Positions 5,649 to 32,303 of a DNA stretch of 36,252 nt are shown in pieces. Numbering within the stretch: position 1 is the first letter of the stretch; each line of letters starts with the position of its first letter. Under the pieces are notes generated by a model. It was not told where the DNA came from. It saw only the letters and a program-made list of their open reading frames with translations, and did no database searches. This DNA is from an archaeon (GTDB lineage: Archaea > Asgardarchaeota > Heimdallarchaeia > Hodarchaeales > S146-22), in contig JAJRXH010000754.1 in NCBI GenBank assembly GCA_024276395.1, positions 1 through 36,252 on the forward strand, read 5' to 3'. A program made the translations under genes and the position numbers.

Positions 5649-6770
5649 ATGAAAAGAAAACTCCTAATAATAGGAGCGACGGGATTTGTAGGAAGGCATT
5701 TTGCTGACGAAATGGCTAAAAGTAATGAGAAATACTGGCATCTCGTTCTCAACATCCCTCCGGAACATCCGTCACGACAGGCATTCATCAATGCTTCAGA
5801 AAAAGAAGGCAATTTTTCCGTCGCTTGGGCTGACATTGAAGATTATTATGAATTGAGGGACATCACGAGAGACGTGAAAGCCTGCATCAATTTTTCTCGA
5901 ATACCTTGGAACTTGAAGCCAGAGAGAAAAGCTAGAATCGACTACGAAAATACGGTTGATAACATCTTCCAAGCTTGTTTAGGTAATGGCGTTCAAAAAA
6001 TAATACACGTCACGTGTGCGCTCGTTTTTGGTCCCACGAATCAAAGAAGAAAGTCGTCCATAAATGATCAAATACCCCGACAGCTAGGTTCGGTTTCTCG
6101 TTCACTACCACGATTCATCAAGGCCCTCGAAAGTGAATTTCATCACCTACAGCAATACGTCGTGGAACGACTCTTCCCCATTAACGTGGTCTATCTTCCA
6201 TTTCTATTTGGGCTGGGAGAAAACCGCATCATCGGCGAATTGATGATTGACTACTTGCTAAATGAAGAACCAGTGCTACAATTTCTCGTTCAAAGAAAAA
6301 ATAAGGGAAAAAATAGAATCAACCTCTTACACGTGTCGGAAGCGGTGTCAGCTTGCAAGCACGTACTCAGTGAATCATATCCCTCTCGCCAATACTTAAT
6401 CGCTGGAGAGGATATCACTTTACAAGAACTCCTAGAAGCTTGGAGAGACGCTGGATTCTCTAGAATGGACATCGAACCTGACAAGCTCATTCAAGCACTT
6501 GACCAATTGAAGTTCCATTGGATGAACAAATTCTTGATAAAAAAACGCTTCACCTTTTTGTTCAAAACAACACGTCAACAATTAAAGATCAAGAAAGAAA
6601 ACAAGCAATTATTGAATTTATTAAACTATGATTGGAGTTTTACTCCCATCAATTGGCATGGTGAAGTCAAGAACACCATTGAAAAGACCATTTCAACTCT
6701 CAGAGCCTTTGAAAGAGAAATACTCAGGGTTGTTGAAGAAGGTGAAAAAGCTCAGAATCATCCAAACTAA
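5649..6770 (+). CDS. NAD(P)-binding Rossmann protein, extended/atypical SDR (epimerase/dehydratase-like)
   Basis: The N-terminal LLIIGATGFVGRH is a TGxxGxxG dinucleotide motif and IIHVTCALVFG is SDR-like. I could not find a clear catalytic YxxxK, so it may be an atypical SDR. Confidence 0.6.
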   Translation: MKRKLLIIGATGFVGRHFADEMAKSNEKYWHLVLNIPPEHPSRQAFINASEKEGNFSVAWADIEDYYELRDITRDVKACINFSRIPWNLKPERKARIDYENTVDNIFQACLGNGVQKIIHVTCALVFGPTNQRRKSSINDQIPRQLGSVSRSLPRFIKALESEFHHLQQYVVERLFPINVVYLPFLFGLGENRIIGELMIDYLLNEEPVLQFLVQRKNKGKNRINLLHVSEAVSACKHVLSESYPSRQYLIAGEDITLQELLEAWRDAGFSRMDIEPDKLIQALDQLKFHWMNKFLIKKRFTFLFKTTRQQLKIKKENKQLLNLLNYDWSFTPINWHGEVKNTIEKTISTLRAFEREILRVVEEGEKAQNHPN

Positions 6771-6789
6771 CTACTACTCAACTGTCCAC

Positions 6790-7851
6790 GTGTTTGGCAA
6801 CTTTACCTGGGATTCATTTTCACGAGAAAATACTGACGAAAAATCACTAGGAGGTCCACCCCGCTTTCAGGCTCCCTTGCTAGTAAAACTTGGCTATCAA
6901 CCGTGCCTTCATACACGAATCACGAGAGCGCAGTTTCAGCAATTTCAGATTCTGATGCGTCAGTTCATTAGTAAGAAAGAAAAGATGATAAGCCCATTCG
7001 AAACAGAACATTTGATTTTTACATCCAAAGCTACCATATTCAAGCATATATATGTCGAAAGTGGCGCAAGAAAGAGCTCTCTCCTTTCTAATGCCGGTCA
7101 CATCCCACTCACCCAATTAGGGACACGACACTTTAAACAAACCACGAGAAAAAAACATGTAGCCATCATCATAAGCCCCGTGTTCTATGAATTATTACCA
7201 AATGAAATCATTTCCCTCTCAAAAAAGACTGACATTCCTCTTTATCTTGATCCTCAAGGATTTCTTAGAAAAATTAACCCCAATACATCTCAAGTCGTGG
7301 GACATCGTTTTTGGAACCTAGAACTCTTTAATTCCGTTGATGTCATCAAGATCTCTGAAGAAGAAATGATGTGTTTATGCCCTCCAACGATCACGGAAGG
7401 ACTGTTAAAAGAATGGAACGCCTCAACAATTCATAAAATGATCTTGAAAGATCTTCAGAAAAGGAATCACGGAAAGATTCAATGGCAAAATCTGCGACCA
7501 AAAATGATCATCGTCACGAAAGGAGCTAAGGGTGCCGAACTAAGCATGACGCTCCACCAGAAAGGGAGCCAACAGCCCTCCTTCAGGCTATATTCATCTC
7601 CATCCTTCCCCACGAAAGTAAAAAATCCTACCGGTGCTGGAGATGCATTCCTGGTTGGATTCATCCATGGCTGGCATATCAGCAAGAACATCGAGTCGTC
7701 CCTTGCCCTTGCCAACGCCATGGCCTCCTTTCAAATTTCAGAACCAGAAATATTGTTTTCTAGCGAAGGCCACGAAGAAATAGAAAGAAGAATGAATTGG
7801 ATTCATGACAAGATTATCATAGATTTCCCCCTGGACAATTCCTCCCTTTAG
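6790..7851 (+). CDS. PfkB-family carbohydrate/nucleoside kinase
   Basis: IIVTKGAKGAEL and the PfkB signature NPTGAGDAFLVGFIHGW. The longest ORF starts at ATG 6628 but overlaps the upstream gene by 143 nt. The in-frame GTG at 6790, just before FGNFTWD, is the more plausible start but remains uncertain. Confidence 0.65.
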   Translation: MFGNFTWDSFSRENTDEKSLGGPPRFQAPLLVKLGYQPCLHTRITRAQFQQFQILMRQFISKKEKMISPFETEHLIFTSKATIFKHIYVESGARKSSLLSNAGHIPLTQLGTRHFKQTTRKKHVAIIISPVFYELLPNEIISLSKKTDIPLYLDPQGFLRKINPNTSQVVGHRFWNLELFNSVDVIKISEEEMMCLCPPTITEGLLKEWNASTIHKMILKDLQKRNHGKIQWQNLRPKMIIVTKGAKGAELSMTLHQKGSQQPSFRLYSSPSFPTKVKNPTGAGDAFLVGFIHGWHISKNIESSLALANAMASFQISEPEILFSSEGHEEIERRMNWIHDKIIIDFPLDNSSL

Positions 7852-8011
7852 GGCAAGGAGAACATCAATTTTCAAGAAATATCCTTGTCCTCCTGAAAAA
7901 TGATGAAAACTGGACGATAATGTACTAGACTAACGACAAGAATCACGTGAGTCTCACAGAAAAAATGGAAAGATGACTAATTGATGAATGATCATTAGTA
8001 GACTGTTGTTG

Positions 8012-8662
8012 TTAATAGAAAAAGGCTCTCAACTCTGGATCTTGTTGCAATAATTCACAAACTTGAAGGCCCAGGGCAGTAAGCTGCCACCCACCACTCT
8101 CACTCCGTTCGACGAGACCTATTTCTAGCAGAGAGGTACTATACTTTCCTGACTTGATGTGGCTCCGAATGGTATCCAGCCCCACTCCTAAAATCTTGCT
8201 AAGTTTCTTGTATCCGACAGAGTCCTTGTATAATTCAATTAGAATCCGTTTTTTTGTTCTTCCCATCCGCTTTACAATCTCTTCGGGAGTCTTTGGGATG
8301 TTCCTATTTCTTGATGGCACCCCATCAGAATTCACATTCCTTGAAGATACCATGGTTCCTCGGCCATCATTCGGCTCCATCCGACCATTTCGAACTCGTG
8401 ACGATGAGGAAGAAGAGACATGATGATGTTCCTTTCGTCTTTTTCGATCGCGATGTCGTCTCGCTGGAACTCCGTTAGAAGATCGGGAAGATCGAAATGA
8501 AGACGAAAAACGACGACGAGGCTTCTCGTTCCCAAAAGAGAGTACATCACGCGATGTCGTCCATCCACGCCGACTTTTTCCAGAATTACGAGATTGTTTC
8601 TTCCCACGAAAATTTTGGTTTTGAGACGTTTTTTCTCCTTTTTCCTTATCATCTTCAGACAT
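8012..8662 (-). CDS. Protein with ~130-aa Arg/Ser/Lys-rich low-complexity N-terminus and C-terminal winged HTH
   Basis: N-terminus SRRGWTTSRD...RRRFSSSFRSSRSSNGVPARRHRDRKRRKEHHHVSSSSSSRVRNG. C-terminus KRILIELYKDSVGYKKLSKILGVGLDTIRSHIK...GLVERSESGGWQLTALG is a wHTH. Confidence 0.6.
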   Translation of the reverse strand: MSEDDKEKGEKTSQNQNFRGKKQSRNSGKSRRGWTTSRDVLSFGNEKPRRRFSSSFRSSRSSNGVPARRHRDRKRRKEHHHVSSSSSSRVRNGRMEPNDGRGTMVSSRNVNSDGVPSRNRNIPKTPEEIVKRMGRTKKRILIELYKDSVGYKKLSKILGVGLDTIRSHIKSGKYSTSLLEIGLVERSESGGWQLTALGLQVCELLQQDPELRAFFY

Positions 8663-8700
8663 TAGCTCCGCACCCTACAAAAAGATCGTGACCATACGAG

Positions 8701-8731
8701 AAAAATAAAATAAAAAATAAAACAAAAAAAA
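8701..8731 (-). terminator. Oligo-T tract downstream of the eL42 gene (archaeal intrinsic-terminator-like)
   Basis: The plus strand is almost pure A (aaaaataaaataaaaaataaaacaaaaaaaa), giving T-runs on the minus strand about 60-90 nt after the eL42 stop. Confidence 0.4.
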
Positions 8732-8792
8732 GGACTTCCTACACTCCTTGAGGCAAGTCCCCCTCATAGTAATTAATGTTTATTCCAACTAT

Positions 8793-9092
8793 CTAACGAA
8801 TTAACTCAACTCGCTTGGCTCTGGGGCGGCTTCGTGCCCATTGTTTACCACAAGTCTCACACTTTAACCGTAGATCAACTCGTTTTGTAGTTTTTGAAGT
8901 TCGACTCCGCTGGCTGATGGGACGTTTTGAATACCGACCCTTGTTTCCATATCCCTTCGTATGTCGTTTCTTCCGTCGTTGACCCTTGCTCCTACCGCCA
9001 CCCCGTTGCCGTGTTTTTTCAATGGAAACTTTATGCGTAGTATGTGATCGACATTTACGGCAATATGTCCTCATTTTTGCTGGAATCTTCAT
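8793..9092 (-). CDS. rpl44e: Ribosomal protein eL42 (L44e)
   Basis: MKIPAKMRTYCRKCRSHTTHKVSIEK...GYGNKGRYSKRP...RVDLRLKCETCGK is the characteristic L44e zinc-ribbon protein. I chose the MKIP start; the ORF track extends 14 codons further to 9134. Confidence 0.9.
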   Translation of the reverse strand: MKIPAKMRTYCRKCRSHTTHKVSIEKTRQRGGGRSKGQRRKKRHTKGYGNKGRYSKRPISQRSRTSKTTKRVDLRLKCETCGKQWARSRPRAKRVELIR

Positions 9093-9196
9093 GCAACACA
9101 CTTCCCCACATCGTGCTTCTTCTAGCGGTCTCAACTAAAAAGATTATCTTCGACATCCATCCAACCACCACTTTTAAAATATGTTGTGCTTCAAGA

Positions 9197-9208
9197 ATTT
9201 TTTTAAAA
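9197..9208 (+). promoter_or_regulatory. TATA-box-like element upstream of the JAMM gene
   Basis: atttttttaaaa lies about 25-35 nt upstream of ATG 9233, spacing that fits a leaderless or short-leader archaeal transcript. Confidence 0.35.
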
Positions 9209-9232
9209 CAGGTAACCATCTCATCACCTGAA

Positions 9233-10255
9233 ATGAACGGCATCATCCACATGAAGGCGAATGCTTACAAGAAATTCCTAGAATTCGCCATGAAACACGC
9301 ACATCCAAAATTGCCACGCTCCCAATGGCAAGAAGTCCTAGGAGTGCTAGTAGGTAGATTTACGGAAGACCATATTGTCATCATTACTGACGTCATCCCT
9401 CTTGCTGTAGGGTCTGGATATCACGTTGAAGTTCACGACTACACGAAAATCTTCTCCGTTCTTCCACCAGAACGAATGGAAAGAGGAGAATTCATCGTTG
9501 GATGGATTCACACGCATCCCGGCCTGGGGTTATTCCTCTCAAGCACCGACGTCCACACGCAATCTCTATATCAAAAACTCGACTCACGAAGCGTTGCCAT
9601 CGTGTGCGATCCCACGAAAATCTCACCTTCATATCCAGGAATGAAAGCCTTTAGGATAAAAACTGTAAACAACTTGATGACCTCTTCATTACAAGAAATA
9701 CCCCTCATCATCACGGAAATGGAAGAAAAAGATTTCACTACCATTCACCAACATATCGCTGACCAGCTGCTAAGAAAGAAAATGATCCCAATCATCACGA
9801 CACTTCCACCACGTGAAGCAACAAGAAGGCTGTACTTGTCTCCAGATGAACTCTTGAGAACCGTGGTCATCCATAACTGGGGTGAAGAAAGCACGATTAC
9901 TCTTCAATGGATTTGTCCACATCCCAAAAAGGACCTAGAAATCAACGTGAAATTGACTCCCAACGATTCAATGCCACTTTCTTTTCCAGAAAAAGATATC
10001 AACTCCCAACATTCGATCGATCTTGGTGCCACCCCTACTGATTTTGCTACCTCCGTTAAGGAAGATTTCTTGACGAGTTTCACGGAAATACACTTGAAAG
10101 TGCAAACTCCTCCACCCAATGAATGGCCGCCAAGATTATTGCTTCCAGTCATCCCGCTAGCAACCTGGACACTGCCTAATGAAATGATCAAGAATTTGCA
10201 AATCATCATCACCAAGGGAAGCTGCTTCACCTATCCCCCCCTTTTGGTCACATGA
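9233..10255 (+). CDS. JAB1/MPN/Mov34 (JAMM, MPN+) metalloprotease with ~200-aa uncharacterised C-terminal extension
   Basis: Upstream Glu in QEVLGVLVGR and an exact JAMM motif HTHPGLGLFLSSTD (HxHx7Sx2D). I chose ATG 9233 (MNGIIHMKANAY). The longer track ORF from 9044 overlaps the divergent eL42 gene. Confidence 0.8.
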   Translation: MNGIIHMKANAYKKFLEFAMKHAHPKLPRSQWQEVLGVLVGRFTEDHIVIITDVIPLAVGSGYHVEVHDYTKIFSVLPPERMERGEFIVGWIHTHPGLGLFLSSTDVHTQSLYQKLDSRSVAIVCDPTKISPSYPGMKAFRIKTVNNLMTSSLQEIPLIITEMEEKDFTTIHQHIADQLLRKKMIPIITTLPPREATRRLYLSPDELLRTVVIHNWGEESTITLQWICPHPKKDLEINVKLTPNDSMPLSFPEKDINSQHSIDLGATPTDFATSVKEDFLTSFTEIHLKVQTPPPNEWPPRLLLPVIPLATWTLPNEMIKNLQIIITKGSCFTYPPLLVT

Positions 10256-10522: not shown

Positions 10523-10798
10523 CTAATAATGCTTTCTTTCATCTTTTGAGCGAATGTGAACCACTCCTCGATGAACTGCACAATTCACGCAATAATATAC
10601 GATCTCTGGAATTCGGGGAACATAAACCTTTTGCCTTCTTAATTCACGGCCAATCTGATAATCAACGAGCGTTTTGTATCGGGTTCTTCTTTTCGCCTTT
10701 CCGCGTGGTACCCGTTTCCCGCACATTGAACAGGCCACGTATTCGTCTCGTCCTTTAGATCCTTTGGATCTTCCTCCAGATTTTCTTTTCTTTGGCAT
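10523..10798 (-). CDS. rps26e: Ribosomal protein eS26 (S26e)
   Basis: MPKKRKSGGRSKGSKGRDEYVACSMCGKRVPRGKA...YYCVNCAVHRGVVHIRSKDERK matches the eS26 pattern KKRRNxGRxKxGRG..C..C...VP.DKA...YC.SCAIH..VVR.RS. Confidence 0.85.
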   Translation of the reverse strand: MPKKRKSGGRSKGSKGRDEYVACSMCGKRVPRGKAKRRTRYKTLVDYQIGRELRRQKVYVPRIPEIVYYCVNCAVHRGVVHIRSKDERKHY

Positions 10799-17458: not shown

Positions 17459-19900
17459 ATGGCAAAGTTTAAGGTAGAAGAAGCCGTTGAAATGATGAAA
17501 AAACTCGATTACGTACGTAATCTTGGTATCATCGCACATATTGACCATGGCAAGTCTACACTCTCTGATTCACTCCTTGCCAGCAGTGGTCTACTTTCTG
17601 AAGACATTGCCGGAATGGCACGTGCCACCGATACTCGTGAAGACGAGCAAGAACGTGGTATCACCATCAAGACTACTGGTATTAGCCTTGTCCACGAATA
17701 TGAAGGGAATACTTACATCATCAACTTGCAAGATACCCCAGGACACGTTGACTTCTCTGGCGAGGTAACATCTGCCCTAAGAGTTGTTGATGGTGCCCTC
17801 GTGGTGGTAGATGCTGTCGAAGGTGTTATGGTACAAACTGAAACAGTAACAAGACAGGCACTAATGGAATACGTTCGACCAGTTCTGATGATTAACAAGG
17901 TCGATCGCCTCATCACGGAAATGAAACTCCCCCCAGAAGAAGCCTATGAACGTTTCAAGCAAATCATCCGAGATTTTAACATTCTCATTGATACTTATGC
18001 TCCTCCAGAATTCAAGCAAAAATGGCGTGTTGATCCCCGAGAAGGTACCGTGGCATTTGGATCTGCCTTCCACCGATTCGGTGTAACTGTTCCTATGCTC
18101 GCACGAGTATGGGCAGAAAAAACTGGCAAGAACCCACAAACACTCGTCAAAGGGCTTTGGCAAAAGAAAAACTTCGTCCAAGGAGTACTGAATCCCCTCT
18201 ATCAGATTTATGAAGCGGCTTTCAACAAGGACATCGAATTCCTCAAGAAAGTGACCAAGCAACTCGGAATCCGTCTCACGGAAGATGATTACCGTCTTAA
18301 CGAAAAAGAACTTGCCAAGAAAGTTCTCTCTCAATGGATGCCCGTCGAGGTGGCAGTTCTCGACATGGTTTGTAAGCACTTACCCTCACCGAAAGAAGCA
18401 CAAAAATACCGCATTCCAGCCATTTGGGAAGGAGACATTGAAAGCGATGTTGGTAAATCAATGATTAATGCCGACAAGGATGGCCCTCTCATGATTGTTA
18501 TCTCCAAGATGATTCCCATGAGGGCCAAACAAATCGTTGCCATGGGACGCATTTTCTCAGGAACGGTGAGATCTGGTCACAAGGTAAACGTCCTCATGCC
18601 TGGATATGTTCCAGGTACTGGTGACAAAGACCGAAGATTCGGCGCAAACATTCAGATGGCCGCCATATTGATGGGAAAAGATACCGAACGCGTTGAAGAA
18701 CTGATTGCGGGAAACATCGTGGCCCTCTACGGCCTCCGAGGAGCCGTGGCCTCAGCCACCATCACCGATCTCGATGACGTGATGCCCTTCAAGGCACTGA
18801 CTTTTGCCGTTGAACCAGTGGTTCGTGTTGCTCTTGAACCTGAAAAGCCCTCTGACCTACCCAAGCTGGCTGATGGTCTTCGGTTAATGCAACTCATCGA
18901 TCCATCACTTCATGCTGAAATTAATGAAGAAACTGGTGAATACATTCTTGCTGGCACTGGAGAATTGCACATCGAAATCGCTGTCAAGGACTTGCAAGAT
19001 CTCCAACGCATCAAAGTCCGACAATCGCAACCCATTGTCGTCTTTCGAGAATCTGTTGAAGGTACCTCTGAATTCCCCGCCCTTGCCAAGAGTCCTAACA
19101 AGCACAATCGTATCTGGATGATTGCTGAACCACTTGACGAAGAGTCCATCCAGCTTATTGAAAGGGGTGAAGTCAGTCAATACATGGATCGCAAGCAGCT
19201 AGCACGTGTCCTCAGGGAAAAAGCCAACTGGAATACTGATGAAGGACGCAATGTTTGGGCCTTTGGACCCACTGATAACGAGCCCAATGTCCTCATTGAC
19301 GCTACCAAGGGTGTACAATACCTCCGTGAAGTAAAAGATTACATTAATCAAGGATTCCGATGGGCTGCCAAGGAAGGACCCCTATCTGGAGAACCATTCT
19401 ATGGCATCAAATTCAAGATAACAGATGTGCAATTGCATGAAGATCCAGTTCACCGTGGCGCGGGCCAGATTATGCCGACTGCCAGACGAGCGTGCTTTGG
19501 ATCAATGCTTCTTGCCAAACCGATCCTCTTGGAACCCATTTATCGAGTGGAAGTCCAAGTTCCCGAAACGTATCTTGGTGGTGTTTACAAGGTCATTACC
19601 AAGCGTCGCGGTAATATCATAGATACCAAGCGTCGCGAGGGCACACCCATCCAAATTGTCATTGGTGAAGTTCCTGTTGCCGAATCATTTGGTATTGTAG
19701 CTGAATTGCGTTCCGAGACCAGTGGATCGGCATTCACTCAGATGATTTTCAGTCATTGGGCAAAAGTTCCTGGAGATCCAATGAAACCAGCATCTGAAGG
19801 CGGTGGTCTTGCTCGAGAGTACGTTGAACAAGTCCGTAAGCGAAAGGGCTATCCTAGCATGACCCCGCCCAAACCAGAGGATTATTATGACAAACTTTAG
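17459..19900 (+). CDS. fusA: Translation elongation factor 2 (eukaryote-like, 813 aa)
   Basis: G1 [9 protein letters not shown], G3 DTPGH, G4 NKVD and diphthamide loop [14 protein letters not shown]. Long blocks match eEF2 as I recall it: [17 protein letters not shown] and the C-terminal EDYYDKL. Confidence 0.95.
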   Translation: [813 protein letters not shown]

Positions 19901-21548: not shown

Positions 21549-22631
21549 ATGGAAATTTCTTACTTCATTAGAGGAGCGACCATCGTTGGTCTAGGGTTTG
21601 GGTTCTGGTATCTTTCCGCATTAGCACTATGGGATCACTTCACCCGACTAAGGTCCGTGAATTATATTGGTCTGGGATTTTTCTTCATAGGTCTTGGGAC
21701 CCTTAGTTATATAATGCGTCTCACCACATCAATCCCTGACATCACCATAGTAGGGCTGTCATCCCTGTTAAACAGCATCGGATTTTTCTTTGTCTGGATT
21801 CATTTCCAGTTCATTTCCAAGAAAATGTTTTCCATCCCAGTTTTTTCGATATTACTCATAATGTTGGCTGTCACGTCAGCATTCACAGTATTTCACGTGT
21901 TGTTTCTCCACCAGCAAATCTTCATCGACCTCTCCATCGCCAGCCTTGTCATCCTCAGCTCAATTAGTCTCTGTTTCCCGATAAAAACGGGAATTTCTGA
22001 ATATTGCCGCCGTCGTGATTGGTTATCATTGATCGAAGGGAAAAGTTTCTTGTTTCTCCTTACTGCCGTCATTGGATATTCTACATCTCATTTCACAAAA
22101 ATGACACCATTATTGTGGCTCTCTCACTTGCTATTAGTTATCAGTGCTGGCTGTCTTATCGGACTTTACACGTGGCATCCACGATTGATGCATCGCATCC
22201 CCTTCAAGGTAGGATATTTATTAGGACTCCATGACAGTGGACTTTTTTTCTTCAAGAAGGAGGTACAAACAACTTTCTTGAAACATGATGAACGAACGAG
22301 AAAAAAAATGCAGTATCTATCCAGCATCTTTTCAGCCATTGATACCCTGTTCAAACACATTCTCATGCAGGATATCGTGTATACGGCTCAAAGAAGCCTA
22401 TTCGTTGAAGTATTGTTCATTCGTGACCCAAAAAAACAGCTAGGCTATATCCTCATTGCTGAAAAGCATTCTTATTACTTGAAACAAGCCCTCAAGATAC
22501 TTCTAAAAATGACACCTAGAAGCTTGCTACTAACAGATATCAATGACACTGACTCCGTGCTGATAGATCAACAGCGAATTAATGAAAAACTCATGCCATT
22601 GGTTGAAAACATTTTTCCAGGTTTAAGCTGA
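21549..22631 (+). CDS. Polytopic membrane protein (about 6-7 TM) with ~130-aa cytoplasmic alpha/beta C-terminal domain; 3' end altered by a 79-bp duplication
   Basis: The first ~210 aa contain successive hydrophobic helices. The C-terminal GYLLGLHDSGLFFFKKE...LSSIFSAIDTLFKHIL...LGYILIAEKHSYYLKQALKILL has a roadblock-like pattern. The TGA stop is created at the duplication junction. Confidence 0.6.
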   Translation: MEISYFIRGATIVGLGFGFWYLSALALWDHFTRLRSVNYIGLGFFFIGLGTLSYIMRLTTSIPDITIVGLSSLLNSIGFFFVWIHFQFISKKMFSIPVFSILLIMLAVTSAFTVFHVLFLHQQIFIDLSIASLVILSSISLCFPIKTGISEYCRRRDWLSLIEGKSFLFLLTAVIGYSTSHFTKMTPLLWLSHLLLVISAGCLIGLYTWHPRLMHRIPFKVGYLLGLHDSGLFFFKKEVQTTFLKHDERTRKKMQYLSSIFSAIDTLFKHILMQDIVYTAQRSLFVEVLFIRDPKKQLGYILIAEKHSYYLKQALKILLKMTPRSLLLTDINDTDSVLIDQQRINEKLMPLVENIFPGLS

Positions 22632-23108: not shown

Positions 23109-23421
23109 CATATTTAGATGCATCCATCTCATCTTATCATTAAACTCCATCCAAGTAACTAATTAGTAACATTCTTCTCCATAGGGCATTCAACTAAAAT
23201 TATCGAACCATTGAAGTTCAAAAAACAAGTTCACATTGTTTTCCGAGTGATGAGACGATTATCAAAACTATCTACCTTGCTAACAGATCAACGTGAACCA
23301 AAATAGAGATAATAAAAAAAGAAAAAATGTGGAAATCACGACCACAAGGCAACCAACACTGATTTAACTAATCTCATCGATTTCTGATTGATAATTTTGT
23401 TCTAACTAAGATATATTAACT

Positions 23422-26400
23422 TCAAATACCTTTTCTCATAGCAACGGCCGTGACAGCACCACCTGCAATCAAAAGAATCAAGCCAACACCCATACCTGCA
23501 GTAAAGGAAATGGATTGCAAGTTCCTTGCGCCATACACGGTATCTCGAAAATCATTGGCAAGATCCTCTGGAATTTCACCACCTTCTTCGACCCAAAGAA
23601 TGGGCATTATGGTCTTCGTGATGTTAGGATAAAATACATCCGTTGCATCAGTAAGAATGTTGATTTGAAGTCTTTTAGCGGCATGCATCACGACACCGGT
23701 TGTCGGTTCAACATCTAGGAAGGTATCATGCCTTTGCTCATCTGGAACAAGTCCTGAAACCTTCGTTAGCCATGACTGATCTGCGTCCAAGAAGTGAGGC
23801 TTGCTCAAGAACAAAGGTATTCCTACGGAAGAAGTCATATTGGCAAAGCCACGGATACTTTGATAATAATCGGGATTGATGGCCAGCACATCATCTGCAA
23901 GCACGAATCGATACAGCGTGATGTCATGAAGGGAAACCTCTTCCTTGAAGACAATCTTGACTGCTCTGAGCAAGTCACCGACCCAGGTAATCAAGGTTTC
24001 TTCTTTCTTGATTTCTGGATGGAATTGGGTGCCATCTGTACCCTGAACTTTCTCTGGTTTTTTCCATACGGTAATGGTATCGTTGTCGTGCCACTTGATG
24101 TAAGTATTTACGAGTGATATGTTTCCCTTGCCAGTATAGAAAGTACTAGTAGGTTCATCAAGTGCATCAGCAACCGAGGTCTGGTTGGTGAAGAAGTGAT
24201 TTTCTGCTTGAGCAAGATCATCTTGGAAAATAAGGGCTAATAATGGATCTGTATATGACCAAAGCCATTGATTCACTGTCCTAGTGCTGATGAGTCCTCC
24301 TCCAACTTCAAATACAGACTTGAGCACGTCAGTAACGAATGTAGCTATGAGATAATTAAGATAAGCACCAACAAGCGCTGCGTTAGATTGATCAAGGCCC
24401 CACAATGACTGAATGATGGAGAAGTTACCATTAGCAAGCAAAGTAAGAAATATACCAACTTCCGTGCTATTAGTGAAGCCATGAGAACCTTCCAAGAGAG
24501 TTTTGATGAAAGTCACGTTCTCAAAAGTAGCTGTGGTCCCTTGCACGTGATTTATCCACGCCCAGTACTCTGGATAGCCTGACAAGGTCGGATCAAAGTC
24601 TTTCACGCTCAATCCAGAGGTAACATTAGGCGATCCCCAATGCAAATAGGCGAGATCTACAAGTTCCGTTACACCAGCAGATGCAAACAACGCTAACATT
24701 CCGGGAATCACGAAAGTTTGATTAAAGTAAGCCAAGTATTCAGCCATCAATGAAGATTCCGTTTGACTGAGTCCCCACAATGACTGAATGGTAGAGAAAT
24801 TGCCGTTAGCAAGTAAGGTGAGGAACACGCCCACCTCCGTGCCATTAAAGAATCCGTGCGTTCCATTGAGTAATTCCTTGATGAAAGTCACGTTCTCAAA
24901 GGCAGCCGTGGTCCCTTGCACGCGTCTTGCCCATGCCCAGTACTCTGGATAGCCTGACAAGGTCGGATCAAGATCTTTCACGCTCAATCCAGAGGTAACA
25001 TTTGGTGCTCCCCATTGCAAGTAAGCAAGATCTGACAATTCTGTCACACCAAAAGAGGCAAATTGTTGAATGAGCAACGGAGGAACAACGTGATCCTTGA
25101 TGTTAGGAGTACCTGCGAAAAGCCAATTGAGAATTAAACTCAGCTGGAAATCTGTCAGATTGAAGGTTGTTCTCAGGAGATTCCGTGCGTTTGAATCACC
25201 CAATGATGCATTGATCCATATAAAGATGCCAGTATCATTTACGAAAGAACTCGCATTGGTAGGATCAAACAAAGCAATCGCTTCCGCAAGCGTGATGTTT
25301 GTCGAATCTGGAGTAGAAGCCAATGAAAGATCATCAATTCCATCTCCGGTGAGATCCACTCCACCTTCGATTCCCGTGCCATTAGTCCATTGAATGAGGA
25401 AGAAATACTCTGCTAGCCCAGCCGTCGTGAGATGAAGATTCTGAAAGAGGCTTGGGATTAACGGCTTTGAAACTTGTGCAAACACGTGAGCAGTGAGATA
25501 ATCGGCCAAAACACCAAGTTGCGTGTTATTCAATCCATAGACTGCTCCAGCTGTTGATAGATCTTGTTGGATCAAGGTAAGGAAACTAATGATACCGCTT
25601 CCGCTCTTTAAATCAGTAAGCCAGCCAGGAACTCCAAAAAGATCATTTCCGTACAGAACCTTTTCAATGGAAGAATTCGTAAAACTATAGGATGTTCCAG
25701 TATAATTGGCCACTCCTTTTAGTACAATGGGGCCAGCAATGGACTGTTGAAAGGCGGTACTATTGAAAAATAAGTTCCGAGCCATTGTGGTACCGTACAC
25801 CTGAGTAAGACCCTCAATGACCTTGTTAATCATTTGTGCTGCGACGGTTGCATTGATCACGATTGGCAACATTGCTGGGACCACTTCATTAAAGAGATGA
25901 CCAACGATGTAGTTGGCAAGGACGTCTAGCTGAGTTACATTAATCAAGTAACCAGCTGCGAGCTGTGTTTTGTCAATAGATTCATTCTGATAGGCTAACA
26001 AGAATCCCAAAAGTCCCGTGCCATTATCGGGATTATTCAACCATCCGGGTAACCCCAGGGTAGCATTTCCGTTGAGGATGCGATTGATGGCTTGAGCACT
26101 AAAGTTATAATCTGCTCCGGTAAAATTAGCCACGCTCTTGAATGGTAGTGATTGATAAGTGACATTATTGAACAAAGTAGCGTTGTCTGTCACGAATTTT
26201 ACGTTACTAAGAAGTATGGAGACAGCTATGGAAGCATTCACGATGGCTTGAACCTGAGAAATCACTTCAGTCTTGATTCCTGTCAGCACTTTAGGAATGG
26301 CTTGAAGAACTACTCCTGGTACGAATTCTGATTTCAAGTTGTCGATGCTCTGTTGAAGTGCTGTTCCCATGGCAGTGATAATGACTTTTTTCAAGAAATC

Positions 26401-26928
26401 TCCCTTAAAACCATCAAGAATCTGCTGCAAGGTTGGACCAACAAAGCCGACCATCAAGGCTTGTTCTGATCCGGCTTTTGCTAGTACACCTTGATAGGCC
26501 GGGTTAATGTTGATGATCTTGTCAGAAAGACTACCACTGGAAAGGGAAGGCTCAAACTTATAGTAGGTATAAGTTCTGAAAGTTACTTTTTGATTATTGT
26601 CTGCAAAAGTCACGTTGAGCTTACGATCATATTGTTGGAAGACATAAGGACCTAATTCCTCAAAAACTGGTTTGTCTCCATTGATATATCCGCCGGGATT
26701 AGTAAGATTCCACAAGTAAAATTTCTTGTATTTTGGAACATCACCAGGATCTTCGTTAGTAATCCAATCTTGATAATTTGGATCTTGTTTACCATCGATC
26801 ACCAAGGTATCTTCGATTCCTTTATTGAGCTGATTCTTGATCTCATTGTTAACAATGAGGCCACCACCAATGGACCCCAAACCTAATAATAATAGAACAA
26901 CACCAGCAATTAACTGCATTCTAACCAA
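23422..26928 (-). CDS. CD36 / LIMP-2 / SR-B scavenger-receptor family (PF01130-like) membrane glycoprotein with ~700-aa repeat-containing insertion
   Basis: It has N- and C-terminal TM helices. Conserved CD36 blocks include FYLWNLTNP...[52 protein letters not shown]...[26 protein letters not shown] and [8 protein letters not shown]. TTG 26928 lies 6 nt after AAGGTGA; the alternative ATG is at 26919. Confidence 0.85.
   Translation of the reverse strand: [1168 protein letters not shown]
24313..25062 (-). repeat. Two tandem ~375-bp (125-aa) intragenic repeat units inside the CD36-like gene
   Basis: Residues 623-747 and 748-872 are near-identical (FAS.[36 protein letters not shown]...[35 protein letters not shown]). 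The DNA shares identical runs of up to about 36 bp, for example cccagtactctggatagcctgacaaggtcggatcaa. Confidence 0.9.
25444..26142 (-). repeat. Two more diverged ~140-aa intragenic repeat modules of the CD36-like gene
   Basis: [34 protein letters not shown]...[26 protein letters not shown] aligns with [34 protein letters not shown]...[26 protein letters not shown]. Confidence 0.75.
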
Positions 26929-27475
26929 TAGAATTCACCTTTTCACGGGAAATATAACAGCATATTATAGCCAAATAAAGCTTATAAACCGTTCTCTCAC
27001 GTGACTTTAAAAGTATTTTTCCGTCAAGAACCAGCAATCATGAAGACCATCTGATGCATGATGTATCTGTAGAAGTCCAGATAAAATCAGCAAGACTGAG
27101 AACACAGATTGCACCACATAACTTCTGATTCAAACAAATTCAAGAAAGTCTAATGAATTGTAGATATCATTTATTTAATCGACATTTCACCCATTAAAAA
27201 GACATGAAATGTCGACAAAATGTTGCCAACAAGAGAGCAAGACACATAGAAAAGAAAACAATCAATGATGTTTATCATAAATTCAAAAAACAAAAAGATT
27301 CCTCAACAATCAAAAATATGGCACAAGAAGATATCCTCATTAATATCCAATTCCTTTAAACAAGTAACCTCAAGAAAAAAGGACAGAATAATGAAAAAAA
27401 TTTTAATTTACTCTAATTAGAACTCAAATCATTCTCTTGAATGGTCTTATTAGATTCTCGTCGATCTTACTTCAT

Positions 27476-27913
27476 TTATTTAATCAAACGTTCGATATCT
27501 TCAATGATCGGCTTCAAATCTGACCTTCTTCGTGAGAGGGCATCATATAACCGACGAGCACTTCTACGCAACACTCTAATGGCCAAGCCAAGAGAATGCA
27601 CGTCACGTGATGCACCAACTAGAATGTAATCACCAGCATTAGAAAAAATGGTATATCCATCCTCTCCTCTTACCACGACCTCATAAAGTTTGCCTGTTGT
27701 CATTCCCTCTGTAACCATATTAGCCGTATTAGATACTGCTGCTGTAAGAGCCGAAAATAGATCCGCATCTGATTCTCTATTTGAATAAAAGGCGATGGAC
27801 TCGCCAGTTCTTGTCGCAACGGCTAATGCTTCCAAGCTGGCATGTCGCACGATTTCCCGCAAGATTTGAATGAGCTGTCGTTTTTGTTCTGGGGTGAGTT
27901 GTGCTCCATTCAT
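27476..27913 (-). CDS. Roadblock/LC7 (MglB-like) domain protein
   Basis: LREIVRHASLEALAVATRTGESIAFYSN...FSALTAAVSNTANMVTEGM..GKLYEVVVRGEDGYTIFSNAGDYILVGAS is the typical Roadblock/LC7 alpha-beta-alpha pattern. Confidence 0.75.
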   Translation of the reverse strand: MNGAQLTPEQKRQLIQILREIVRHASLEALAVATRTGESIAFYSNRESDADLFSALTAAVSNTANMVTEGMTTGKLYEVVVRGEDGYTIFSNAGDYILVGASRDVHSLGLAIRVLRRSARRLYDALSRRRSDLKPIIEDIERLIK

Positions 27914-27988: not shown

Positions 27989-28870
27989 TCATGCTCTCAG
28001 ATATGGTAACCACTTGGGATCAGAAAAGAGTCGTTCAACAAAATAAATGAACAAATCGTTCACGCTCAACCGAACATTTCCCTGCGAATAACACTCCCAA
28101 ATAGAAGGGAGAGTTTGTCGAAGAAAATCTTGGAATTGATCAAGGTAATGCGTTAGATTTGTTGATTGCGTGCTACTTTCCATCACGTCTCCTTGATGAC
28201 GAAGATCACCATTTGCCTCTATTGGACTAGCTGTATCTTGTGAGGTTGATTCAAGCAAGTCTCTCTTTAATTCACGTGTCAGGGAGGTCGTTGAAATGGA
28301 AGCATTTCCTCGTGACGGAGAATACAATCGTAATTGTTGTCGTCTATTCCATTCTCTATAGAGTTCCTTCAAGAAATCTGGAAATAAACTAGGCTCTTCT
28401 TGAAAAATCTGGGAAATTCGCTGATAAACAAGATCATACAAACGTTTTCTAAGATTTTCACCTCGTGCCAAAAACAAAAGTCCCCATATTGGCAATGATA
28501 ATAATAGAGCTGCTTGCATCAAGGTCTGAATGCCATCAGATGTTGATAACAATGATAATGAAAAGACTTGCTCTGGATTCCAGAGAAAGGAAATTAGAAA
28601 CATCAATGCAATGCCATTAATGACAAGAAAGACGCCAAATCGACCATGTCTTAACAAGAGAGAAGAGAGATATCCCACGTTAGCCAGGAGACGGGCATTC
28701 CGGGTAAGAGCACGAGATGTGCGCTGTGTGAGATATGCATAATTACCCATCATAACAAGATGGGAAAAAATAATAAGCATCGACGGGGTAATGACGAATA
28801 AACGCGATACGAAATAAAATAACGGTAAGATCATTAAATCGATCACAACTAATGGGGGAATTCTCCTCAT
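27989..28870 (-). CDS. Hypothetical membrane protein (about 4 TM N-terminal half, soluble C-terminal half)
   Basis: Hydrophobic helices span residues ~5-135, followed by a charged or disordered linker. It lies 75 nt upstream of the Roadblock gene on the same strand. Confidence 0.5.
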   Translation of the reverse strand: MRRIPPLVVIDLMILPLFYFVSRLFVITPSMLIIFSHLVMMGNYAYLTQRTSRALTRNARLLANVGYLSSLLLRHGRFGVFLVINGIALMFLISFLWNPEQVFSLSLLSTSDGIQTLMQAALLLSLPIWGLLFLARGENLRKRLYDLVYQRISQIFQEEPSLFPDFLKELYREWNRRQQLRLYSPSRGNASISTTSLTRELKRDLLESTSQDTASPIEANGDLRHQGDVMESSTQSTNLTHYLDQFQDFLRQTLPSIWECYSQGNVRLSVNDLFIYFVERLFSDPKWLPYLRA

Positions 28871-29058: not shown

Positions 29059-29499
29059 TCACGGTTCTTGAGACACATTTGGATATTCATATGGAACAAA
29101 TTTATATCCATAACGAAGCACTGAATCATCAGATGCAGCGCCGTACTTTCTAAAGGCATACCGAACCTTCATTCCAGTTTTCACTCGTGAAAAAGGAACC
29201 CCTACTATTTGGCCAATTACCCGATGACCATCTTCAAGTTCAATAAGTGCAACAATGTAGGGAACTTCATCCTCACGATGCTCTTGAGCCATGTGTACCT
29301 CTGAAAAACTAATGACCTTGCCCACGCGACTAACGGGCCTCTCGCCTCGTGTTTTGACACCACAGTCAAGACACAAAGGACGTGGTGGGAAATACACGCT
29401 ACCACATTCTGGACATTCACGTCCAGAAAACCGATAACGGTGCCCAATCGTTCTCCAATATAAAGGAATAGAATCTTCTACCATTGATTTCACCACCAT
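29059..29499 (-). CDS. DUF35 OB-fold/zinc-ribbon protein (scaffold of the archaeal thiolase/HMG-CoA synthase complex)
   Basis: Zinc ribbon CPECGSVYFPPRPLCLDCG followed by an OB-fold segment (GKVISFSEVH...YIVALIELEDG.RVIGQIV). Confidence 0.85.
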   Translation of the reverse strand: MVVKSMVEDSIPLYWRTIGHRYRFSGRECPECGSVYFPPRPLCLDCGVKTRGERPVSRVGKVISFSEVHMAQEHREDEVPYIVALIELEDGHRVIGQIVGVPFSRVKTGMKVRYAFRKYGAASDDSVLRYGYKFVPYEYPNVSQEP

Positions 29500-29545
29500 T
29501 TAATAATAACCATCTTAATTATATTAGATAAATAATAAGTCACTA

Positions 29546-30754
29546 TCACTCATCAATAGTCAAAACGTTAACCAAAGCTGTCGCTCCAGTTCCTCCTAGT
29601 GACTGTGCCACACCCACCTTTGCATCTTTTATCTGTCTCTTACCAGCTTTCCCCAGCAATTGCAGGCATAACTCCACGATCTGCCCAACACCTGTAGCAC
29701 CAAGAGGATGTCCTTTGGCTTTAAGACCTCCTGAAGGACTAACTGGCAACGAGCCATTTAAAGAAGTTTCACCTTCGAATGTGGCTAATGCTGCCTTTCC
29801 AGGTTGATAAAAGCCCATTGACTCCAAAGCAATGAGTTCAGCAATGCTGAATGAGTCATGCGCCTCGATTACATCCACTTGTTCTCTTGGGTTGGTAATG
29901 CCCGCTTGCTTAAATGCCATTTTAGCTGCTTTCTTAACGGCTTCAAAAGTGGTCAGTGATTCCCGTGAATGCAATGCTAGATAGTCTTGTCCTTGTCCAG
30001 ATCCTTTTATCCACACGGGACTATCAGAATACTCTGGAATCTTCTCATCCGCTGCGAGTATGACCACGCTAGCTCCATCCGTAACTGGAGAGCAATCTAG
30101 AAGTCCTAAAGGATCTGCCACGATCTGTGATTTCAAAACTTGCTCTCGTGTAAATGCTCTCTTGAAATGGGCATTCGGGTTCAAGGTGGCATTAAAATGA
30201 TTTTTTTCCGGGACTGCGGATAGGTGTTCCTTATTCACTCCAAATTCTTCGAAGTACGCTCTCGCCATCATTGCAAATGCTGATGTATAAGTCAAGCCAG
30301 GCTCTACTTCCCAATCATGATCAAGCATTGTATTTGCCAAGATACTGGTCACTCGTGGATTACTTGTTTGATCCCACATCTTTTCTACTCCCACGACCAT
30401 GGCCGTATCAATCATTCCCGACTTCACGGCCAAATAAGCAGCTCTTAACGCTGCAGCACCTGAGGCGTCCGCAGCCTCTATCCGAAAACTAGGCACGTTC
30501 AAGAGGCCAGCTGCATCTGCAACCAACGCATTTACGTGTCCTTGTCCCACGAACATCTCCGCAGCAGCGTTACCGACAAACAAGGCACCAACATCGCCTT
30601 TATCAAAGCCACCTTTTTGAACGGAATCAAAAGCCACTTCTATCGCTAAAGAAGCTAACTCTCGCAACGATAAATCCCAATGTTCACCATAAGGGATTTC
30701 ACCTAGTCCAATGATTCCAACTTCATTCTTGCGAGTTGACATGATCATCACCAA
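29546..30754 (-). CDS. Archaeal-type thiolase-fold protein (acetoacetyl-CoA thiolase family) with Asp in place of the nucleophilic Cys
   Basis: The full length resembles archaeal thiolases (GIIGLGEIPYGEHW, VGVEKM, CSPVTDGASVVIL, NPSGGLKAKGHPLGATG). The conserved EAACASG motif reads EAADASG. The start may be ATG 30742 (MSTRK). Confidence 0.8.
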   Translation of the reverse strand: MVMIMSTRKNEVGIIGLGEIPYGEHWDLSLRELASLAIEVAFDSVQKGGFDKGDVGALFVGNAAAEMFVGQGHVNALVADAAGLLNVPSFRIEAADASGAAALRAAYLAVKSGMIDTAMVVGVEKMWDQTSNPRVTSILANTMLDHDWEVEPGLTYTSAFAMMARAYFEEFGVNKEHLSAVPEKNHFNATLNPNAHFKRAFTREQVLKSQIVADPLGLLDCSPVTDGASVVILAADEKIPEYSDSPVWIKGSGQGQDYLALHSRESLTTFEAVKKAAKMAFKQAGITNPREQVDVIEAHDSFSIAELIALESMGFYQPGKAALATFEGETSLNGSLPVSPSGGLKAKGHPLGATGVGQIVELCLQLLGKAGKRQIKDAKVGVAQSLGGTGATALVNVLTIDE

Positions 30755-30915
30755 CTTTAACCCAACTAAAGGTTAATGTCACTTATATTTAACTCACGAT
30801 ACCTATCATAATCTTCATTCAATAGAATTTGGTCCATTCACAAGCTTAACTGAATGCTACAATCTTTAGTTAACTCCATTCTCACGAAAATAATAAATGA
30901 ACCTTGCCATCTCAT

Positions 30916-30949
30916 TTCCACACCATCTGGTATTCCACACCATCTGGTA
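30916..30949. repeat. Perfect 17-bp tandem duplication
   Basis: ttccacaccatctggta occurs twice. Confidence 0.95.
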
Positions 30950-30990
30950 CTGGAAAGCCCTTGTTCAACCTAATCTTCCTCTTTTCATTA

Positions 30991-31016
30991 TACATCGCCG
31001 CATTACATCGCCGCAT
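30991..31016. repeat. Perfect 13-bp tandem duplication
   Basis: tacatcgccgcat occurs twice. Confidence 0.9.
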
Positions 31017-31214
31017 CGCAAAGCATTTTCTACGTGAATCTCCAGTGTCCTCAACATTTACCTAATCAATAATGCTTTGGTAGATTATCGTTCAAGATCG
31101 TGGCTCAAATGACAAGTCACTCATTATCTAAAAATAAAAAATGCCAAAGAATTGACGAATTGATTGTCCTCTGACATCAAAGAACTTCAATGACAACATT
31201 CTTTCTCTAACTTG

Positions 31215-32303
31215 CTACTCTCGTTCATGCTCTACGATTTTTCCTCTAATCTTCGCATATTCAGCATATGTAATGTTTTTCTTGTTGTTAATGTATTCAT
31301 CCACGGTTGGAGCTCTATCACGACGATCTTCAATTTCATCAGTAATTACAAAGCTGAAACTATCACTGCCTGCACCAGAACCAAAACTTGTCACTAGGAT
31401 ACGATCACCCTCCTTGGCCACATCCAGTACCCTTGCTAAACCCACCATTGATGCTCCAGAATAAGTATTACCAATGTATCTCACGGCCAGGGAGCGTTCG
31501 ACCTTCTCCAGTGGAAAACCTAACATCTTGGCAGCAGCAATCGGAAACTTCCCATTAGGCTGATGAAATACAACATAATCAACATCTTGGACAGTTAATC
31601 CCAGTCTCTCCATTAGTCCTCGTGTTGCTGAAACGACATGCTTGAAATATGCAGGTTTTCCAGTAAAACGTGAGCCATGACGAGGAAACATCTGACCAGG
31701 TCTTCTAAAGAAATCTGGAGTATCAGTCGTAAATGAATAAGTTCCTTCCAATTCAGCAATCACATGATCCGTTCCTATTAAGAAGGCCGCCCCCCCAGCC
31801 CCTGCCGTGTATTCAAGGGCATCACCAGGTCGGCCCTGAGAACAATCTGCACCTATGGCCATTCCATACCTGATCTGACCAGATACCGTCATCCCAGCTA
31901 TCATTTGCATTCCAGCAGTGCCAGCCTTGCAAGCAAATTCGAGATCTGCACACGTACAATGCGGGGCCGAACCGATAGCCTCAGCAACTGTTACTGCTGT
32001 GGGCTTAACAGCATAGGGATGAGACTCAGACCCCACATAAATGGCACCCACATCTTGAGGACTAATGAAAGGAACTTGTTTCATTGCATTCAAGGCAGCC
32101 TCGACAGAGATGGTAATGGTATCTTCATCAATATCTGGAACAGATTTCTCAATCACGTTGAGACCTTTACTGAGACTTTTACCATCTTCATTCCAGACAC
32201 GAGCTATCTCTTCAACAGACACTCGCAAGCGTGGAATGTACACGCCATAAGCAACAATACCAACTGGCATTTCAAAATCACTTCCCATTCTTTCCTTTTT
32301 CAT
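31215..32303 (-). CDS. Hydroxymethylglutaryl-CoA synthase (archaeal type)
   Basis: [35 protein letters not shown] (Glu), [12 protein letters not shown] (Cys), FHQPNGKF (His) and GNTYSGA. It is near-colinear with methanogen HMGCS as I recall it. Confidence 0.9.

Follow-up and report, generated by a model that had tools for sequence, protein, structure and literature searches.

The window analyzed here is contig JAJRXH010000754.1 of a Hodarchaeales archaeon (assembly GCA_024276395.1), taken over its full length of 36,252 nucleotides. On the minus strand, at positions 23422-26928, it carries a complete coding sequence for a protein of 1168 amino acids that belongs to the CD36/scavenger receptor class B (SR-B) family. 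The explanation that best accounts for the results as a whole, and a probable one, is that this is a genuine, native Heimdallarchaeial CD36/SR-B membrane protein, an outward-facing, glycosylated lipid conduit of a family shared with eukaryotes since before the last eukaryotic common ancestor (LECA).

Family Membership and Membrane Topology

The window protein is a true member of the CD36/SR-B family. Its match to the Pfam profile PF01130 reached an E-value of 2.1e-94 and 317 bits (cut-off 26.5) and fell in two stretches, the best-scoring of which spans positions 141-460 of the 463 in the profile. A phmmer search against the sequences of the PDB returned LIMP-2 at 8e-43 and CD36 at 1.6e-40. A preliminary description of this DNA had proposed a full-length CD36/LIMP-2/SR-B homologue with one transmembrane helix at each end and conserved blocks matched by eye to human CD36. 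The open reading frame was present as described there and lies on the minus strand with a TTG start, the conserved blocks were reproduced in the phmmer alignments with LIMP-2 and CD36, and family membership was confirmed by PF01130, by the PDB search, and by Foldseek. The PF01130 profile had been suggested there as a check, as had a structure prediction compared by Foldseek and a phylogeny, both presented below.

What had been overlooked is that the family match is split. Its two pieces cover residues ~41-145 and ~861-1135, with ~715 residues between them. In the HMMER alignments with LIMP-2, the first stretch covers query residues 60-134 (N-terminal part of LIMP-2), and the second aligns query residues 864-1129 with LIMP-2 residues 127-403. 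The size of 1168 amino acids is explained by this 715-residue insertion at the ectodomain's apex.

Hydropathy peaks of transmembrane grade (Kyte-Doolittle) were found only at residues ~1-28 and ~1137-1165. The N-terminal transmembrane helix (residues ~5-27; positions 26848-26916, minus strand, as for all parts of the protein given below; peak windows 1-10) follows a four-residue cytosolic tail, MVRM, and aligned with the N-terminal transmembrane helix of eukaryotic SR-Bs. The C-terminal transmembrane helix (residues ~1140-1162; 23443-23511; peak windows 1137-1150) is followed by the tail MRKGI. The peaks agreed with model helices at residues 2-42 and 1121-1167, as the earlier proposal of a hairpin implied. 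The tails outside both helices comprise 4-6 residues and bear Arg or Lys, and the whole arrangement fits a hairpin with both termini in the cytoplasm.

The protein contains no cysteine. It contains 37 N-X-S/T sequons, compared with 11.2 ± 3.0 in composition-matched shuffles, and every one falls within residues 74-1102, on the side predicted to be external. Conserved ectodomain disulfides were not found: no cysteine column was conserved in at least 30% of the non-metazoan sequences. Such bridges in SR-B ectodomains have been reported in Metazoa only (PMC10715195), and since they define a metazoan subfamily and not the CD36 family, their absence is compatible with membership.

Cysteine content and sequon density differed between the two archaeal clades, referred to here as Heimdall and Loki. 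Eight of 10 Heimdall-clade homologues had no cysteine and two carried 2-3, and sequons were mostly abundant (1.0-2.6 per 100 amino acids; 3.2 in the window protein). Loki-clade proteins carried 2-7 cysteines, including one that is clade-specific and conserved, and their sequon density was mostly at chance level (0.4-1.1 per 100 amino acids, with one protein at 2.8). This contrast may reflect different ways of stabilizing the ectodomain.

Predicted Structure of the Ectodomain Core

An AlphaFold2 model was built from a 93-sequence alignment. The mean predicted local distance difference test score (pLDDT) was 84, and the core scored >95, with values ranging over 93-98 in the N-terminal piece (residues ~41-145; 26494-26808; β-strands at residues 66-141) and over 90-98 in the C-terminal piece (residues ~861-1135; 23524-24348).

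When the model was compared with the PDB by Foldseek, CD36 (5lgd) was matched with an E-value of 3e-18 and LIMP-2 (4f7b, 4q4b, and others) with values of about 1e-17. These matches had target-normalized TM-scores of 0.58-0.62 and root-mean-square deviations (rmsd) of 2.5-3.1 Å over 277-289 columns, with sequence identities of 26-29% over ~285 columns. As modeled, the ectodomain core is an asymmetric antiparallel β-barrel like those of LIMP-2 (4F7B) and CD36 (5LGD), and the structural comparison thus agreed with the preliminary description.

The Apex Insertion and Its Repeat Modules

The apex insertion (residues ~146-860; 24349-26493) makes up ~715 amino acids, or 61% of the protein. It was delimited as the gap between the PF01130 stretches, and in the alignment with eukaryotic members it follows the conserved NxNPAY strand and precedes the GGGLxTxRTVxEWLW block. 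DSSP assigned nearly all of it to helix, except for two short strands at residues 394-404. It occupies the α4/α5 position of the canonical, membrane-distal three-helix bundle: in place of that bundle, the model has the insertion between an α4-equivalent helix (residues 143-152) and an α5-equivalent helix (residues 847-877). Departures from the three-helix bundle have been documented for many eukaryotic SR-Bs longer than 500 amino acids (PMC10715195), so an altered apex does not exclude membership in the CD36 family. The insertion matched no Pfam family and, by Foldseek, gave no significant fold match in the PDB.

Several units could be distinguished within it. A single helix of 95 residues (residues 155-249; 26182-26466; DSSP on the model, pLDDT 68-81) leaves the core and is followed by two copies of a first repeat, A, at residues ~249-355 (25864-26184, the lowest-confidence part of the model) and ~389-492 (25453-25764). 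Next comes a conserved module of ~110 amino acids (residues ~499-604; 25117-25434), identified from invariant alignment columns, hhalign, and a hidden Markov model (HMM) of the module. Two copies of a second repeat, B, complete the series at residues ~615-748 (24685-25086) and ~740-873 (24310-24711); the last helix of the second copy enters the CD36 core, where model helix 847-877 is followed by a strand at 880-884. In internal blastp comparisons, the A copies shared 37-41% identity (E down to 1e-13) and the B copies 60-86% (E down to 1e-33). Taken together, helix 155-249 and helix 847-877 would form a stalk of ~14 nm, a length derived from 1.5 Å per residue.

The ~110-residue module was found well beyond the window. 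Residues W514, W571, and W602 were invariant across Heimdall and Loki homologues, and a profile of the Loki inserts aligned by hhalign with residues ~517-603 of the window insertion (probability 96%, E 6e-9). The window insertion alone matched the proteins of the ciliate Muranothrix (E 8e-28) and the amoebozoan Luapelamoeba (E 5e-19) in blastp with a nominal database of 1e9 residues. An HMM built on residues 499-604 was run on 203 collected sequences, with E-values at Z=1e6, and matched 98 of them, 79 of which were full-length proteins of at least 640 amino acids. Matches included Muranothrix (2e-6), Luapelamoeba (2e-4), and Rigifila (3e-4), and none of the ~500-residue forms among the 203 was matched. 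Full-length matches below 640 amino acids numbered only two (580 and 593 amino acids), both shorter members of enlarged-apex clusters. Across Heimdall homologues, the insert ranged from 267 to 1182 amino acids.

The only broad study of the SR-B family covered 165 eukaryotic proteomes, with prokaryotes not searched, and described enlarged helical apices as independent, lineage-specific, and without known homology (PMC10715195). The presence of the ~110-residue module in Heimdall, Loki, and protist sequences argues for a common origin of many enlarged protist apices and the archaeal ones.

Tandem arrays of 3-6 copies of the module were also found in large proteins with neither the CD36 core nor a Pfam match (P0063, encoded at 6001-9384 of locus L007, and P0093, P0094, P0097, P0137, P0143, and P0145). 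One of these proteins is encoded on a 313-kb prokaryotic contig, adjoining GatA/GatB. As a group, they look like an uncharacterized extracellular repeat family.

Distribution of Relatives

When 1.84 billion representative proteins were searched exhaustively with phmmer, 3675 relatives scored E ≤ 1e-3, of which 445 reached E ≤ 1e-30. Within the top 150 of these 3675, all labeled sequences were Asgard or eukaryotic. The archaeal share amounted to ~25 representative clusters, and relatives are present in at least two Asgard classes. Archaeal homologues were found on contigs of 14-114 kb named Hodarchaeales, Kariarchaeaceae, Heimdallarchaeota, Lokiarchaeota, and Promethearchaeia. The top matches from the first three groups were 724-1648 amino acids long and mostly cysteine-free, and those from Lokiarchaeota and Promethearchaeia were 733-971 amino acids long with 2-7 cysteines. 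Among GTDB species representatives, searched with one narrow pattern, four loci were found, on contigs titled Heimdallarchaeota or "archaeon". Exact look-ups returned no entry for the window's CD36 protein, with either start, or for its thiolase; the assignment to Heimdallarchaeia follows the nearest homologues.

Eukaryotic relatives with an enlarged apex (750-860 amino acids) were named for Muranothrix (ciliate), Luapelamoeba (Amoebozoa), Rigifila (CRuMs), and Stygiella (jakobid), and relatives of ~500 amino acids for Cavostelium, snakes, and Nematostella. Many unnamed relatives of 740-950 amino acids were located on contigs that barely exceed the length of the gene; one of these ends with AATAAA plus poly(A) and another has a GC content at third codon positions (GC3) of 83%. 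These sequences are eukaryotic transcripts.

Phylogeny

A core alignment of 358 columns was obtained by splicing out the inserts and realigning. Maximum-likelihood (ML) analyses were performed with a home-made program (BLOSUM62-derived rate matrix, four gamma classes, nearest-neighbor interchange search only), the figures from which are indicative only. The tree comprised 125 sequences, and bootstraps were run on 61 taxa with 82 replicates.

In the best ML tree (log-likelihood -82816.7), the Heimdall and Loki clades received local RELL values (resampling of estimated log-likelihoods) of 0.99 and 1.0, respectively. They were recovered as sister clades (edge 0.048, approximate likelihood ratio test 10.5, local RELL 0.81), and the archaeal clan joined between an enlarged-apex eukaryotic group and a ~500-residue group. 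The phylogeny that the preliminary description had left to be built thus placed the archaeal sequences between the two main eukaryotic groups. The immediate neighbor of the archaeal clan was a GC-rich eukaryotic transcript, P0067. In the bootstraps, the Loki clade was recovered in 98% and the Heimdall clade in 48% of replicates, and the archaeal clan was broken mostly by a few long-branch eukaryotic sequences. Constraining the search to the archaeal clan led to a local optimum (-82842.3) worse than that of the unconstrained tree; since the latter itself holds the clan, this comparison was dropped as meaningless.

Mean ML distances were 1.69 between Heimdall and Loki, 2.06-2.21 between Heimdall and eukaryotes, and 2.43-2.52 between Loki and eukaryotes; for each eukaryote to other eukaryotes, the median of the means was 2.56. 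On average, Heimdall sequences were therefore nearer to every eukaryote (1.9-2.2) than eukaryotes were to one another. The same slow-evolving eukaryotes, drawn from both main groups, were nearest to both archaeal clades, and no eukaryotic donor lineage stood out in these distances. Distance quartets favored the grouping of Heimdall with Loki against two eukaryotes in 65% of cases (59% as bootstrap average), compared with a random expectation of 33%.

Rare characters were also considered. One single-residue indel parts archaea from eukaryotes. Diagnostic sites, too few to decide, numbered five shared by Heimdall and eukaryotes but not Loki, one shared by Loki and eukaryotes but not Heimdall, and none shared by Heimdall and Loki but not eukaryotes. 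The archaeal genes are read here as old, as following Asgard taxonomy, and as not nested in any sampled crown lineage of eukaryotes.

Origin and Proposed Function

In CD36, SR-BI, and LIMP-2, ligands bind at the apex and a hydrophobic tunnel delivers lipids to the outer leaflet of the membrane. By analogy with these proteins, the apex of the window protein would bind hydrophobic or particulate ligands or touch partner surfaces, and lipid-like molecules would move through the barrel, into or out of the outer membrane leaflet. The large domain is expected to face outward on the cell surface and to be heavily N-glycosylated. The long helix and the repeated modules would carry the binding end far out from the membrane, the 95-residue helix accounting for roughly 14 nm, and the enlarged apex with its variable copy number would serve as a fast-evolving element of long reach, for recognition or as a spacer. 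The variation in copy number (inserts of 267-1182 amino acids) suggests rapid adaptation of reach or specificity. With regard to history, the CD36 family would have been present both in Asgard archaea and in the stem lineage of eukaryotes prior to LECA, its apex module already enlarged; an SR-B has been placed in LECA by a published analysis (PMC10715195).

Several points weigh against this interpretation. The prokaryotic holders were judged from the best 150 of the 3675 representative relatives, and others may exist. The family may be patchy in Asgard archaea, a distribution that would also suit a transfer. No conserved gene neighborhood pointing to a pathway was found among four Heimdall loci. 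Archaeal membranes consist of isoprenoid ethers, which makes any natural cargo conjectural. As for the phylogeny, deep branching in neighbor-joining trees was unstable, with either simple or ML distances, and these trees did not recover the archaeal clan. The joint archaeal clan appeared in 26 of the 82 ML bootstrap replicates (32%), and at this value the tree cannot separate vertical inheritance from ancient transfer, much as the preliminary description had left the choice between a eukaryotic signature protein and a eukaryote-to-archaeon transfer.

An ancient transfer is conceivable, although on balance unlikely. The gene would have been acquired from a protist as an enlarged-apex SR-B, once by an ancestor of Heimdall and Loki or by one class that then handed it to the other, and would have diversified later; the protein and its likely function would be the same as in the favored explanation, and history alone would differ. 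A eukaryotic source would be in keeping with the size and diversity of the family in eukaryotes, with 3675 representative relatives set against only ~25 archaeal clusters, and with the four GTDB loci, which may indicate patchiness. The nearest eukaryotes include anaerobic sediment protists that share Asgard habitats (Muranothrix and Stygiella), the ML tree has the eukaryotic transcript P0067 as sister of the archaeal clan, and the bootstrap for a clean split between archaea and eukaryotes is weak. Nevertheless, no donor lineage is evident, identity to the nearest eukaryotes is at most ~40%, and the composition of the gene is fully host-adapted. Each of the two eukaryotic groups between which the archaeal clan attaches spans supergroups, and the clan lies inside neither. 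Moreover, the archaeal clades, sisters in the ML tree, correspond to Asgard classes, and a transfer would therefore have to date back about as far as the split between Heimdall and Loki.

Still somewhat less likely is a structural or adhesive role, in which the CD36 barrel would be a membrane pedestal of a cell coat and the helical apex would make cell-cell or cell-substrate contacts, for instance with syntrophic partners, with no lipid transport. Such a role would suit an apex that takes up 61% of the protein, is repetitive, and varies from 267 to 1182 amino acids among close homologues, as well as the 3-6-copy tandem arrays of its module in prokaryotic proteins that lack the CD36 core. The sequon enrichment suggests a component of a glycocalyx, and there is no cytosolic tail for signaling. 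On the other hand, the barrel core is the most conserved part of the protein, with many residues invariant across archaea and eukaryotes, which argues that functional constraint acts on the core as such, just as in its lipid-handling relatives. In addition, adhesion and lipid transfer are not mutually exclusive, and CD36 performs both.

Genomic Context of the Gene

The CD36 gene is native to the archaeal genome. Its GC content (0.431) and GC3 (0.417) fall within the ranges of its neighbors (0.39-0.47 and 0.34-0.44, respectively), and homologues with archaeal genes on their flanks (TFB, HMG-CoA reductase, QueC, and Arf/Rag-like GTPases, for example) occur on at least six independent archaeal contigs. 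That eukaryotic DNA was mis-joined into the archaeal contig or mis-binned into archaeal genomes is scarcely credible, as the gene lacks introns and opens at a TTG preceded by a Shine-Dalgarno motif, its GC and GC3 match those of the flanking archaeal genes on both sides, homologues lie amid archaeal genes on those independent contigs, and the archaeal sequences form clades of their own, apart from all eukaryotic ones. Archaeal context, matching composition, and independent contigs together exclude a chimeric join or contamination for practical purposes. The preliminary description of an intronless gene among archaeal neighbors (eS26, A-ATPase subunit E, and the DUF35/thiolase/HMG-CoA synthase genes) was accurate, and its composition matched theirs.

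The coding sequence opens with TTG and ends with TGA. A candidate Shine-Dalgarno-like GGTGA (26935-26939, minus strand) was read from the sequence 6 nt 5' of the start, and the closest homologues also begin with MV a few residues ahead of the first hydrophobic segment; both observations support the TTG start. A/T-rich, TATA-like elements (tttataa and tataata; 26963-26988, minus strand) are located 35-60 nt 5' of the start and represent a candidate archaeal promoter, and a T-rich tract ~95 nt past the stop (23311-23327, minus strand) is a candidate archaeal terminator. Two antisense reading frames within the gene, at 23794-24117 and 25097-25393 (plus strand; 107 and 98 amino acids), are most likely mechanical artefacts of a long gene.

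Genes identified in the window encode eS26, A/V-ATPase subunit E, a DUF35/thiolase/HMG-CoA synthase trio, an EF-2-type GTPase, a JAB/MPN protein, a Roadblock/LC7 protein, an "archaeal ATPase", a PIN protein, and tRNA-Met. The Roadblock/LC7 gene (27476-27913, minus strand) lies immediately upstream of the CD36 gene and shares its strand. Two hydrophobic, apparently multi-pass membrane proteins without a Pfam match flank the locus (360 amino acids, 21549-22631, plus strand; 293 amino acids, 27989-28870, minus strand).

The trio (29059-32303, minus strand), which covers the first steps of the archaeal mevalonate pathway, is 2-5 kb from the CD36 gene. A Hodarchaeales contig (L005) carries a CD36 homologue together with TFB and HMG-CoA reductase, the latter (L005 1-766) 7 kb from the homologue. 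Isoprenoid-lipid genes were thus found near CD36 homologues at these two loci and were not recurrent at others, and their position beside a putative lipid receptor may be a coincidence.

A 56-kb Lokiarchaeota contig (L009) also carries a CD36 homologue. Two Arf/Gtr1-RagA-like GTPase genes (L009 4320-6439) are located 1.5-3.7 kb upstream of it on the same strand. This Roadblock or Arf-Rag pairing recalls the lysosomal Rag-Ragulator setting of LIMP-2 and did not recur in three other Heimdall loci. Right-handed β-helix/NosD-type proteins, presumably surface proteins, are encoded 0.2-3.5 kb downstream of CD36 homologues in two Heimdall loci (L001 16665-19484; L005 13095-14624); the two are too dissimilar to each other (E >1e-8) to count as conserved neighbors.

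Farther from the gene, a JAB1/MPN-domain protein of the ubiquitin-type isopeptidase family (403 amino acids; 9044-10255, plus strand) adjoins eS26 (10523-10798, minus strand), and both are eukaryote-like features typical of Asgard genomes. The EF-2/EF-G-type GTPase (17459-19900, plus strand), at 813 amino acids, is longer than typical archaeal EF-2 and may be one of the Asgard EF-2 paralogues. An AAA/NACHT-like ATPase of 470 amino acids is followed, with a 4-nt overlap, by a protein of 256 amino acids with weak matches to coiled-coil families only (3457-5636, plus strand); the pair may constitute a STAND-type module.

Comparison with Known Systems

The human proteins LIMP-2/SCARB2, CD36, and SR-BI resemble the window protein in hairpin topology, β-barrel ectodomain, conserved blocks, and dense N-glycosylation sequons. 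They differ from it in size (472-509 compared with 1168 amino acids), and the window protein is set apart by its 715-residue repeated helical insertion at the α4/α5 apex, by cytosolic tails of 4-6 residues, and by the lack of cysteines and hence of disulfides. The archaeal host is not known to have an endolysosomal system, and its membrane lipids are isoprenoid ethers.

Dictyostelium LmpA, LmpB, and LmpC are LIMP-2/CD36 homologues involved in phagocytosis and phagolysosome biogenesis and, judged by description, are likewise non-metazoan members of the family. Their function relies on endolysosomal and phagocytic machinery, which archaea are not known to possess. The nearest named eukaryotic relative of ~500 amino acids was that of the amoebozoan Cavostelium.

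Closer likeness was found with protist SR-Bs that have an enlarged apex (Muranothrix P0038, Luapelamoeba P0044, Rigifila P0095, Stygiella P0120, and many metatranscriptome sequences), a group treated in Genome Biol Evol 2023, evad218 (PMC10715195). Their enlargement occupies the same apex position, is all-helical, and contains the ~110-residue module and a B-type unit homologous to those of the window protein; they also lack the conserved disulfide cysteines, as is general outside Metazoa (PMC10715195). The protist proteins contain one copy of each unit and are 740-950 amino acids long, whereas Heimdall proteins contain 2-5 copies and reach 1648 amino acids.

That Asgard archaea can carry a lipid-handling fold of eukaryotic type has a precedent in StarAsg1, a group of START-domain lipid transfer proteins for which common ancestry has been proposed (Lipp & Budin, bioRxiv 2025; PMC12139934). 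StarAsg1 has an unrelated fold and is soluble and cytosolic, whereas the window protein is an integral membrane protein and a putative surface glycoprotein. Mycobacterium smegmatis LmcA (PDB 7shw, 7n3v), a prokaryotic envelope protein crystallized with xenon in its cavities, showed a weak Foldseek likeness to the barrel core (E 3e-3, TM-score 0.33-0.39); there was no detectable sequence similarity (10-13% identity) and the rmsd was 8-14 Å, so this is not evidence of homology. The likeness hints at a related lipid-cavity architecture in bacterial envelope proteins.

Novelty and Significance

No published description of archaeal CD36 proteins was found in a literature search across 8.3 million full texts for the CD36/SR-B family together with archaea and eukaryogenesis, and the supplements of Eme et al. 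2023 contain no mention of the family. The preliminary claim that the protein is undescribed holds for the literature and not for databases, where labels already exist: the NCBI pipeline names one protein "CD36 family protein [Candidatus Heimdallarchaeota archaeon]", and the label "lysosome membrane protein 2" also occurs. As far as can be told, this is a known family newly placed in the archaeal domain. The view of the protein as a CD36 homologue of an Asgard-type archaeon is upheld by sequence, fold, archaeal context, composition, and homologues on archaeal contigs alike.

CD36, SR-BI, and LIMP-2 play central parts in lipid uptake, in phagocytosis, and in the biology of lysosomes. The evolution of their family has so far been analyzed within eukaryotes only and traced back to LECA. 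Native members in two Asgard classes give it a prokaryotic comparison group and add a putative membrane-surface, lipid-handling glycoprotein to the still few eukaryote-type proteins of Asgard archaea, few candidates among which concern the cell surface. The shared apex module challenges the published view that apices were enlarged separately, lineage by lineage. If the gene came from eukaryotes, a complex surface receptor would have passed from them to Asgard archaea in ancient times, an unusual event in its own right.

A more far-reaching scenario, speculative and quite improbable in its entirety, is that the family arose or was present in Asgard ancestors as a glycosylated surface lipid conduit with a long modular apex, that eukaryotes inherited it and recruited it to phagosomes and lysosomes, and that the short animal apex is a secondary reduction. 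Should the proposed function be correct, Asgard cells would take up or exchange hydrophobic molecules, such as fatty acids and lipids of bacterial partners, straight into their membrane. This would provide a concrete molecular route for host-partner lipid traffic in eukaryogenesis, the "lipid divide" problem, and would bear on how the archaeal host met its partners and handled foreign lipids.

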